From the IMG/VR virus record IMGVR_UViG_3300029762_000052: a DNA stretch of 8,212 nt. One strand, written 5' to 3'. Shown here one piece after another: positions 7,574-7,906 of this stretch. The notes under the pieces are model-generated. The model was not told the DNA's origin. It worked only from the letters and a program-made list of their open reading frames with translations, and made no database searches. The stretch's first letter is position 1; the number at the start of each line of letters is the position of its first letter. Source of the DNA: a virus. Its lineage: Duplodnaviria > Heunggongvirae > Uroviricota > Caudoviricetes. Made by a program: the position numbers and the translations under genes.

Positions 7574-7906
7574 TCAGGGTGCAGAAGGACTAAAGATAAA
7601 CGTTTTCTTCACGCCTTTACGCGGCCTGTCCTTCTCAAATCGCCATTTTGCCATCGCCTTTACAACCTGCTCATCAAACAGATGGTGCGGCTCTGAACGG
7701 ATAAACTCAATTCGGGTGACAGTACCATCAGCACCAATATCAAACTTCACATCAACCCGTCCCTTTATATAATTTGCCGCTGCATAGGCCGGATATTGTG
7801 GTAATGCCTTAACCAACTGTCGGGGCATATCTGTTTTATGTTGCGTACAGCCCATAACCAGAGAAGACAACAAAATAATTAACGGAAGATTTCTTTTCAT
7901 TTTCAT
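7574..7906 (-). CDS. Lipoprotein with TonB/TolA C-terminal-like domain (probable accessory/moron gene)
   Basis: Signal peptide with lipobox-like LVMGC (MKMKRNLPLIILLSSLVMGC), followed by YPAYAAANYIKGRVDVKFDIGADGTVTRIEFIRSEPHHLFDEQVVKAMAKWRF, which matches the TonB_C-type pattern (YP…A…G.V.V.F.I..DG.V…FD…A…W.F). Start is ATG at 7906 or 7900; the GTG at 7915 in the track is less likely. The region looks AT-richer than the head genes (by eye). Confidence 0.7.
   Translation of the reverse strand: MKMKRNLPLIILLSSLVMGCTQHKTDMPRQLVKALPQYPAYAAANYIKGRVDVKFDIGADGTVTRIEFIRSEPHHLFDEQVVKAMAKWRFEKDRPRKGVKKTFIFSPSAP

Follow-up and report, generated by a model that had tools for sequence, protein, structure and literature searches.

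Iron and vitamin B12 enter the cell mainly through TonB-dependent transporters, and many phages, colicins, microcins and siderophore-antibiotic conjugates use them as their way in. A 2001 study by Howard, Herrmann, Stratilo and Braun (J Bacteriol 183:5885) reportedly found, to go by its title, that a free periplasmic TonB domain inhibits the transport mediated by FecA and FhuA. The Ton boxes bind to the C-terminal domain (CTD) of TonB as a parallel strand that is added to strand beta3 (PMC11658791). Seven functionally important residues of the CTD (Y163, F180, G186, F202, W213, Y215 and F230) are thought by Postle's group to discriminate among transporters and colicins (PMC3005593). A phage-encoded protein that acts on one of these transporters is Llp of T5, a lipoprotein of the inner leaflet of the outer membrane, which binds FhuA, inactivates it as a phage receptor and so blocks T5; its authors group it structurally with Cor proteins that are encoded by prophages. 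The present analysis concerns a gene in a stretch of viral DNA of 8,212 nucleotides (IMG/VR record IMGVR_UViG_3300029762_000052), which is called the window below. The window belongs to a lambdoid prophage of E. coli, the head genes of which are of the HK97 type. The gene, at 7574..7900 on the minus strand, encodes a small putative lipoprotein that carries a TonB-type CTD. The probable target of this protein is the machinery of TonB-dependent transport, on which it would act from the periplasmic face of the outer membrane, possibly as a decoy for the Ton boxes.

The lipoprotein and its gene

The open reading frame (ORF) of the gene spans 7574..7915 on the minus strand, where it opens with GTG, and has in-frame ATG codons at 7906 and 7900. 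The preliminary description of this DNA gave the gene as 7574-7906, and the ATG at 7906 is indeed in frame and gives a protein of 110 residues. The likelier start is two codons downstream, at 7900. It gives 108 residues, is common to the allele found in phage 21, is preceded by a GGGA resembling a ribosome-binding site (RBS) and is the start called in RefSeq; the upstream ATG reads ATA in the allele of phage 21 and E. coli CFT073. The parts of the gene product are as follows.

7574..7900, minus strand: coding sequence of the TonB_C lipoprotein, 108 residues, with the stop codon TGA at 7576-7574; named 'TonB family protein' in RefSeq
7847..7900, minus strand: lipoprotein signal peptide MKRNLPLIILLSSLVMG (7900-7850), followed by the codon of the lipidated Cys18 (7849-7847)
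7826..7846, minus strand: linker TQHKTDM, 7 residues from the anchor to the domain, in place of the transmembrane helix and proline-rich rod of TonB
7589..7825, minus strand: TonB C-terminal domain, residues 26-104 in the 108-residue numbering, equivalent to residues 153-231 of E. coli TonB
Elements of the domain in the AlphaFold2 model: strand 28-30, helix 38-42, strands 47-55 and 61-70, helix 76-84, edge strand beta3 94-103

The idea that the protein is lipid-anchored, which was already part of the preliminary description, is borne out by its N-terminus. Residues 1-18, that is MKRNLPLIILLSSLVMG and the following Cys, consist of a basic n-region, a hydrophobic core and a lipobox, and the residue at position +2 is Thr. 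By the sorting rule of E. coli, Thr at +2 directs a lipoprotein to the outer membrane, and on the strength of the lipobox and this residue the mature protein is predicted to be located there. The lipobox Cys is kept in 12 of 13 aligned members of the family, the exception being P0038, the N-terminus of which is disrupted. Asp at +2 occurs in none of the aligned members.

The TonB-type domain

The protein is a member of the TonB_C domain family. The profile search that the preliminary description had called for confirmed this above the curated cut-offs: Pfam PF03544 (TonB_C) matches with an E value of 5.5e-15 and 56 bits (cut-off 24.6), and TIGR01352 scores 56.5 bits (cut-off 27.1). The CTD chains of E. 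coli and Salmonella TonB among the PDB sequences match at E 3e-16 to 2e-15, residues 28-106 in the 110-residue numbering being aligned with residues 153-231 of TonB. An AlphaFold2 model was built from 13 sequences of the family. The predicted local distance difference test (pLDDT) values in the domain are 94-98. The model shows the fold of the TonB CTD, in which helices pack on a three-stranded sheet, and its free edge strand, beta3, is modelled with confidence. When the model was compared to the PDB with Foldseek, it was superimposed on 1U07, 2GSK_B and 2GRX_C with a root-mean-square deviation of 1.1-1.4 A and a target template-modelling (TM) score of 0.88-0.91. Chain B of 2GSK is TonB bound to BtuB and chain C of 2GRX is TonB bound to FhuA. 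The CTDs of TolA matched far more poorly in the same comparison (E 0.05-1). Of the 'TonB/TolA C-terminal-type domain' proposed in the preliminary description, the TonB part is thus supported by the profiles, the PDB matches and the model, and the TolA part is not.

The YP motif and all seven recognition residues are retained in the window protein. Across 19-20 members of the family, four of them (Y163, G186, F202 and W213) never vary, an aromatic residue is always found at positions 180 and 215, and 16-17 members keep F230. The seven residues are common also in other TonB_C hits, a set that is biased by similarity.

Distribution and selection

Of 5426 complete E. coli genomes, 1616 (about 30%) carry a member of the gene family; Shiga-toxin-producing E. 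coli and uropathogens are among the carriers. Two alleles exist in E. coli. The window type occurs with an identity of 95% or more in 414 complete genomes, and Stx1a-converting phages carry it at 99%. The second, which is 71% identical to the window type, is carried by phage 21, CFT073 and about 1200 genomes, the copy of CFT073 being nucleotide-identical to that of phage 21. Relatives are encoded on 172 further IMG/VR contigs, and at least 1000 contigs encode the exact window protein, without exception under a generic name such as 'TonB family protein'.

The ratio of nonsynonymous to synonymous substitution rates (dN/dS) between the two E. coli alleles is 0.12 at a dS of about 1.5, and this holds for the signal peptide as well as for the mature part. 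A ratio this low at such a distance indicates that the gene is functional and under long-term purifying selection rather than a remnant of tonB.

Some database variants of the phage-21 type (P0012, P0013, P0016, P0018, P0019 and P0021) diverge near residue 90 and have alternative C-termini without beta3; P0012 alone represents 130 sequences. These variants reflect either common decay in cryptic prophages or a recurrent frameshift variant.

Chromosomal relatives

Relatives of the protein were sought in 1.84 billion representative sequences and by two word-index searches. Many proteins of 104-133 residues, from several genera, share the arrangement of lipobox, short linker and TonB_C domain. The domain of the window protein is 50-53% identical to that of the Klebsiella and Raoultella members, compared with 40% to E. 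coli TonB; the Pantoea members are 37-38% identical over the whole protein. In a neighbour-joining tree the window protein falls outside the enterobacterial TonB clade (bootstrap 73/100), and the monophyly of all the short lipoproteins is weakly supported (15-23 of 100-200 bootstraps). A new finding from these comparisons is that the closest relatives are small chromosomal TonB_C lipoproteins of Klebsiella, Raoultella and Pantoea, and not TonB. A recent capture of E. coli tonB was considered and rejected in view of the 40% identity, the separate clade and the closer chromosomal lipoprotein relatives.

The Klebsiella and Raoultella locus lies by lacI, outside prophages, and comprises, in this order, the genes for a protein of 136 residues that has an LTPEQ motif, for a glycine-zipper protein (Rick_17kDa_Anti), for the TonB_C lipoprotein and for a DUF1440 protein. 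The Pantoea copy has an unrelated chromosomal context of LysR, SDR and ECF-sigma genes. Ten chromosomal loci, each representing a species, were scored for Fur boxes against the 7-1-7 consensus TGATAATnATTATCA. Boxes with 0-2 mismatches were found in 9 of the 10, at 29-31 nt before the start codon. They have the following positions.

L013 (Klebsiella sp. R445), 6975-6989: Fur box TGATAATTATTATCA, with 0 mismatches
L009 and L014: Fur box about 30 nt before the start of the gene
L097-L105: Fur box at about 4970-4985

By chance, the R445 locus would be expected to have 0.01 matches with at most 2 mismatches. The box reads TGAGAATTATTATCA in Raoultella and TGAGAATGATTATCA in Pantoea, and it forms a conserved island within an otherwise variable spacer, downstream of a terminator hairpin. 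This arrangement points to monocistronic, iron-regulated genes. The Fur boxes of the relatives tie the family to iron starvation, when the TonB-dependent transporters are derepressed.

Proposed function

The gene has long been annotated, as 'TonB family protein', 'TonB C-terminal domain protein' or 'partial tonB-like', and according to the literature found its function is unstudied: a search gave no functional study of the gene, and two genome papers do no more than list phage- or island-borne 'TonB' genes as cargo. The preliminary description had raised a TonB decoy or superinfection-exclusion factor as a hypothesis; the structural part of its reading is borne out, and the functional part stays a hypothesis. 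We infer a mechanism in which the product is a small outer-membrane lipoprotein, the sole folded part of which, a TonB CTD, is held about 7 residues off the inner leaflet. Because the transmembrane helix and the proline-rich rod are lacking, such a protein would not couple to ExbB/ExbD. Its free beta3 and its recognition residues would dock on the Ton boxes of FhuA, FepA, Cir, BtuB and other transporters and on those of group-B colicins. Present at high local concentration on the Ton boxes, it would compete with the scarce TonB of the host and uncouple the transporters from their source of energy. A cell that expresses it would be tolerant to TonB-dependent phages of the T1 and phi80 kinds, to colicins and to microcins, at a cost in the uptake of siderophores and B12. 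This specific sequence of Ton-box occupation, transporter uncoupling and exclusion of phages and colicins is put forward as a tentative reading.

The decoy mechanism agrees with the fold, the retained residues, the selection on the gene, its prevalence, its conserved placement in phages, its moron-like composition, a conserved extended -10-like element upstream of it and the link of its relatives to Fur. The free periplasmic TonB domain of Howard et al. and the inactivation of FhuA by Llp are published precedents for it. Since the seven recognition residues are frequent also in other TonB_C hits, their retention supports the decoy without proving it or discriminating it from other functions. 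Variation within the family at positions 158-162 is no counter-argument, because TonB that lacks these residues keeps 60% of transport.

Several observations weigh against this mechanism. The surface of the domain differs systematically from that of TonB: R166 is replaced by Tyr in 17-18 of 19-20 members, L170 by Asn, and V226, which is located on beta3, by Lys, so that the target could differ as well. The gene is co-oriented with the late genes and no convincing terminator separates it from them; expression may therefore be confined to the late lytic phase, when exclusion would be of little use. The chromosomal members with Fur boxes make a purely inhibitory role less obvious, for a gene of the host that curbs the uptake of iron just when the cell is starved of it is a paradox, unless the protection gained is worth more than the loss. 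Uropathogens such as CFT073 depend on TonB for virulence, and since CFT073 carries the gene, strong constitutive inhibition is unlikely. The receptor domains of the tail-tip protein J of the carrier phages are 42-48% identical to lambda J over the C-terminal region, and no J of the phi80, HK022 or N15 type is among the matches listed for these phages. With receptor domains like that of lambda J, the carriers give no sign of guarding their own receptor as T5 does. PADLOC contains no model for, and gave no match to, the lipoprotein as a known defence system.

The receptor of the carrier phages was also sought from the C-terminus of J, with self-exclusion of the Llp kind in mind; the similarity to lambda J did not identify it.

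In its broadest form the proposal would make the protein a general 'Ton-box cap', by which one protein uncouples many transporters and shields the lysogen from TonB-dependent phages, group-B colicins and siderophore-microcins, while the Fur-controlled relatives form an innate shield that is induced by iron starvation to cover the derepressed receptors. This generalisation is conceivable and rather doubtful.

Expression signals

The region upstream of the gene contains the following candidate signals.

7907..7911, minus strand: RBS-like CGGGA, the GGGA core of which ends 6 nt before the ATG at 7900; AGGA is found at the same place in phage 21
7933..7960, minus strand: sigma-70 promoter-like site, with ATGACC, a spacing of 16 nt, TAGAAT and an extended -10 TGT (extended -10-like element TGTTAGAAT); identified by consensus match and conservation; predicted start of transcription near 7926
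7921..7937, minus strand: perfect 8-1-8 palindrome AGAATAAGACTTATTCT over the -10, specific to the window allele
8014..8036, minus strand: weak and doubtful terminator-like hairpin of 8 pairs, 4 of them G-C, followed by TCTGATTTGT; upstream of the promoter-like site

The -10 lies within a 16-nt stretch, ATTGTTAGAATAAGAC at 7928-7943, which is one base off the sequence of phage 21; the roughly 90 nt that precede this stretch are poorly conserved. Three promoter-like sites were found where 1.8 are expected in shuffled sequences. One terminator-like hairpin was found against 1.2 expected, and it is not conserved in phage 21. No terminator was found downstream of the gene, and neither flank has a convincing intrinsic terminator. 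Late transcription that is antiterminated by Q should read through the lipoprotein gene because of its orientation with the late genes.

The phage alleles have no Fur box, the best match upstream of the window gene having 5 mismatches. The palindrome AGAATAAGACTTATTCT was considered as a site of Fur control and rejected: at 13 of 19 positions it agrees with the 19-mer consensus, which is no better than two further AT-rich sites in the vicinity, 5 of its bases deviate from the 7-1-7 core, and the phage-21 allele has a deletion of its right half. The phage copies have exchanged Fur control for a position in the late operon and a possible constitutive promoter. Elsewhere, 19-mers resembling the Fur consensus at 14-15 of 19 positions occur by cosQ in phage 21 (L002 6042-6066) and upstream of the small terminase gene in a Klebsiella phage (L004 8601-8625). 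These may be chance matches in AT-rich DNA or sites of other DNA-bending proteins near cos.

Two further features of this region were noted. On the plus strand, at 7746-7773, a near-consensus sigma-70 promoter (TTCACA, 16 nt, TATAAT; 11 of 12 positions) lies antisense within the coding sequence of the lipoprotein. Its TATAAT overlaps conserved Asn-Tyr-Ile codons, is found in the phage-21 allele too and may reflect coding constraint. Upstream of the gene, a non-coding stretch of 173 bp (8040-8212), which continues past the end of the window, is about 90% identical to phage 21, the adjacent coding sequence being 74% identical. Copies of it, nearly always un-annotated, number 4541 and are spread over 1912 of the 5426 E. 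coli genomes. The possibility of a structured RNA in this stretch was rejected, as there is no Rfam match and the fold z-scores are -0.9 and -0.8.

Genomic setting

The genes of the minus strand are arranged in the order lipoprotein, HNH endonuclease, small and large terminase, a fusion of prohead protease and major capsid protein, and portal. In a prophage of strain 05-3629 that is 99.7% identical, the genes upstream of the lipoprotein gene are those for a holin, a lysozyme, an antirepressor and Rz, and the Rz gene holds an embedded, proline-rich Rz1 lipoprotein (MKLCVLMLPLVVSAC...). Rz/Rz1 are annotated in phage 21 too. The homologue in phage 21 and CFT073 directly follows bor/iss and lies downstream of S-R-Rz/Rz1, and a Klebsiella phage has a 40%-identical homologue between its lysis genes and HNH/terminase. 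The placement after the lysis genes and before HNH/terminase is conserved in the E. coli and Klebsiella phages examined.

The suggestion of the preliminary description that the gene lies in AT-richer DNA was correct. The G+C content of the lipoprotein gene is 44% (41% at third codon positions), compared with 54-60% (53-68%) for the HNH, terminase, capsid and portal genes, and the composition is that of a moron-like gene. Taken together, the ORF, the lipobox, the TonB_C domain, the composition and the placement go far past what chance would give.

Other parts of the prophage have features of their own. The sole other gene of the window that lies on the plus strand, at 7242-7442, encodes a YlcI/YnfO (DUF3950) protein of 66 residues with a basic N-terminal segment, MSSKNRTRRTTTRNIRF, and is convergent with the lipoprotein gene. 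In the single ORF of 645 residues at 2330-4267 on the minus strand, a prohead serine protease (Peptidase_S78, residues 48-152) is joined to a major capsid protein of the HK97 type (residues 386-635); this ORF is located between the large terminase and the portal genes, not after the portal. Directly after the portal stop and in another frame, an open frame at 1-754 on the minus strand runs past the start of the window and contains 3.7 tandem copies of a 162-bp (54-residue) unit with a match of 92% (...DVRPMLEQMVKEAVSHIPVPRDGRDYDPEVLQKAVNDAVANIPQPADGKSITPD...). RefSeq marks the portal gene of the near-identical prophage as 'frameshifted', and the frame at 1-754 may thus be a repeat extension linked by a frameshift, or a separate repeat protein. 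The integration site of the same prophage (L006) adjoins a truncated ompW and is close to the trp operon; the prophage has a porin gene annotated ompC among its tail genes (17878-19041) and a hok/gef toxin gene by gpJ (10737-10877).

Alternative explanations

Rather than blocking uptake, the lipoprotein could be a positive or regulatory accessory of it, which aids the transporters under iron limitation and is carried as iron-acquisition cargo and a fitness factor of the prophage. It would, for example, dock periplasmic binding proteins, of which FhuD and BtuF reportedly bind the TonB CTD in vitro, or arrange the contacts of TonB at the outer membrane. The Fur boxes of 0-2 mismatches at nine of the ten chromosomal loci, in two unrelated genomic contexts, favour such a role, and the phage-borne 'tonB' is listed in genome papers among iron-transport cargo. 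The allele that CFT073 shares with phage 21 to the nucleotide also speaks for it, and phage 21 carries in its b region sitB, sitC and sitD of an iron/manganese ABC importer (L005 12968-15001; record 21967-24502). On the other hand, an isolated CTD is unable to transduce energy, the phage alleles lack a Fur box, and the sole experimental precedent for a free periplasmic TonB domain is, from its title, one of inhibition. We know of no protein for which an accessory mechanism of such a kind has been demonstrated. An accessory role is the main rival of the decoy and is judged unlikely. As to the sit genes themselves, sitA presumably lies just beyond the stretch examined, and it is suggestive that a metal importer independent of TonB travels in phage 21 with a possible blocker of TonB.

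The phenotype predicted for the decoy would also arise if the lipoprotein bound host TonB itself, CTD to CTD through beta3 or by another surface, and so sequestered it at the outer membrane instead of capping the more numerous transporters. TonB is limiting, being far scarcer than its transporters, and its titration would be economical. Fragments of the TonB CTD crystallise as dimers mediated by beta3, among them 1U07, the best structural match of the model, and the family keeps the aromatic residues through which Cys variants of TonB cross-link as dimers in vivo (PMC3005593). The same work showed that the crystal dimers are absent in vivo, and a trap for TonB appears quite improbable.

A third possibility arises from the gene's location. 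It directly follows the lysis cassette on the late strand, its product is predicted to be an outer-membrane lipoprotein like the o-spanins, and PHROG 1267, which matches over the full profile with E 1.9e-42, is labelled 'Rz-like spanin' (lysis). The protein would then be a spanin-like or other late protein of the peptidoglycan or outer membrane, aiding lysis or the integrity of the envelope. A complete Rz with embedded Rz1 is encoded separately both in the prophage and in phage 21, and the architecture does not fit: there is no C-terminal transmembrane segment as in a u-spanin, no pairing with or embedding in an i-spanin, and the domain is a globular one of TonB type. Spanin identity was rejected on these grounds, and the PHROG label, given to a family that consists in essence of the TonB_C lipoprotein, is very likely an annotation error that stems from the lipobox and the neighbouring lysis genes. 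The existence of chromosomal, non-phage relatives with Fur boxes also speaks against a role in lysis, which is very improbable.

That the gene is a decaying, functionless fragment of tonB, as could be read from one phage record ('Partial tonB-like membrane protein encoded within prophage CP-933N') and from the variants of the phage-21 allele that are frameshifted at the C-terminus and have lost beta3 (P0012, with 130 members, P0013, P0016 and P0018), is effectively refuted by the low dN/dS at a dS of about 1.5, the acquisition of a conserved lipoprotein signal, the same layout in several genera and the position outside the enterobacterial TonB clade.

Implications

If the decoy mechanism is correct, the gene would add a new variety to the known phage lipoproteins that jam TonB-dependent transporters, one that works by mimicry of the host's energy transducer and affects potentially all such transporters rather than one. 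Should the cap be as general as suggested above, superinfection exclusion and bacteriocin tolerance would gain a class that differs from Llp and Cor. Under the decoy mechanism, prophages would alter the susceptibility of their hosts to competitors and to 'Trojan-horse' drugs by a new route, and part of the strain variation of pathogenic E. coli in sensitivity to colicins, phages and drugs of the cefiderocol type could be explained. The protein would also be a ready-made probe of Ton-box recognition by TonB. If it is a helper of uptake instead, an unrecognised, Fur-controlled component of the TonB system would exist in Klebsiella, Raoultella and Pantoea.

Comparison with known systems

The CTD of E. 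coli TonB (1U07, 2GSK_B and 2GRX_C) has the same fold as the window protein, 37-42% identity to it, and the YP motif and the seven recognition residues in common with it. The phage protein differs in having a lipid anchor in place of the N-terminal transmembrane helix and the proline-rich rod, and in the changes R166Y, L170N, A196S and V226K, which are characteristic of its family. Its best score against the NCBIfam TonB equivalog is 73 bits, where the cut-off is 315, and the match is confined to the C-terminal third of the model. The lipoprotein signal, the 7-residue linker and this sub-cut-off score indicate that it is not a bona fide TonB energy transducer. The constructs of Howard et al. 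are likewise an isolated periplasmic domain of TonB, uncoupled from the inner membrane, and the phage protein would operate as they do. They are, however, made in the laboratory, soluble and identical to TonB, whereas the phage protein is natural, diverged, lipid-anchored and under selection.

The chromosomal lipoproteins of Klebsiella, Raoultella and Pantoea, of 104-116 residues, have the same layout of lipobox, short linker and TonB_C domain. They are found in an ordinary chromosomal context as monocistronic genes with a Fur box, while the phage copies belong to the late operon and are without one.

Bor/Iss of lambda is, like the protein described here, a small lipoprotein encoded in the accessory region after Rz/Rz1. 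The preliminary description had assigned the gene to the position of bor, and this holds: phage 21 and CFT073 have it immediately beside bor/iss. The direction of Bor transcription, which starts from a promoter of its own in the lysogen, is opposite to that of the late operon, whereas the lipoprotein gene is co-oriented with the late genes, and the folds of the two proteins are unrelated.

Llp of T5 and the Cor proteins of phi80, N15 and related prophages are also small phage-encoded lipoproteins, and superinfection exclusion is their function; the gene described here is found in phage 21, the Stx1a phages and the Klebsiella phage. Homology to Llp or Cor was considered and rejected: the Pfam matches are to TonB_C and TonB_2 only, the best match in BFVD has an E value of 0.23, and the fold is that of the TonB CTD. 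The mode of recognition would differ: Llp binds a remodelled plug surface of one transporter, whereas a TonB CTD is expected to recognise the Ton box that is common to all of them.

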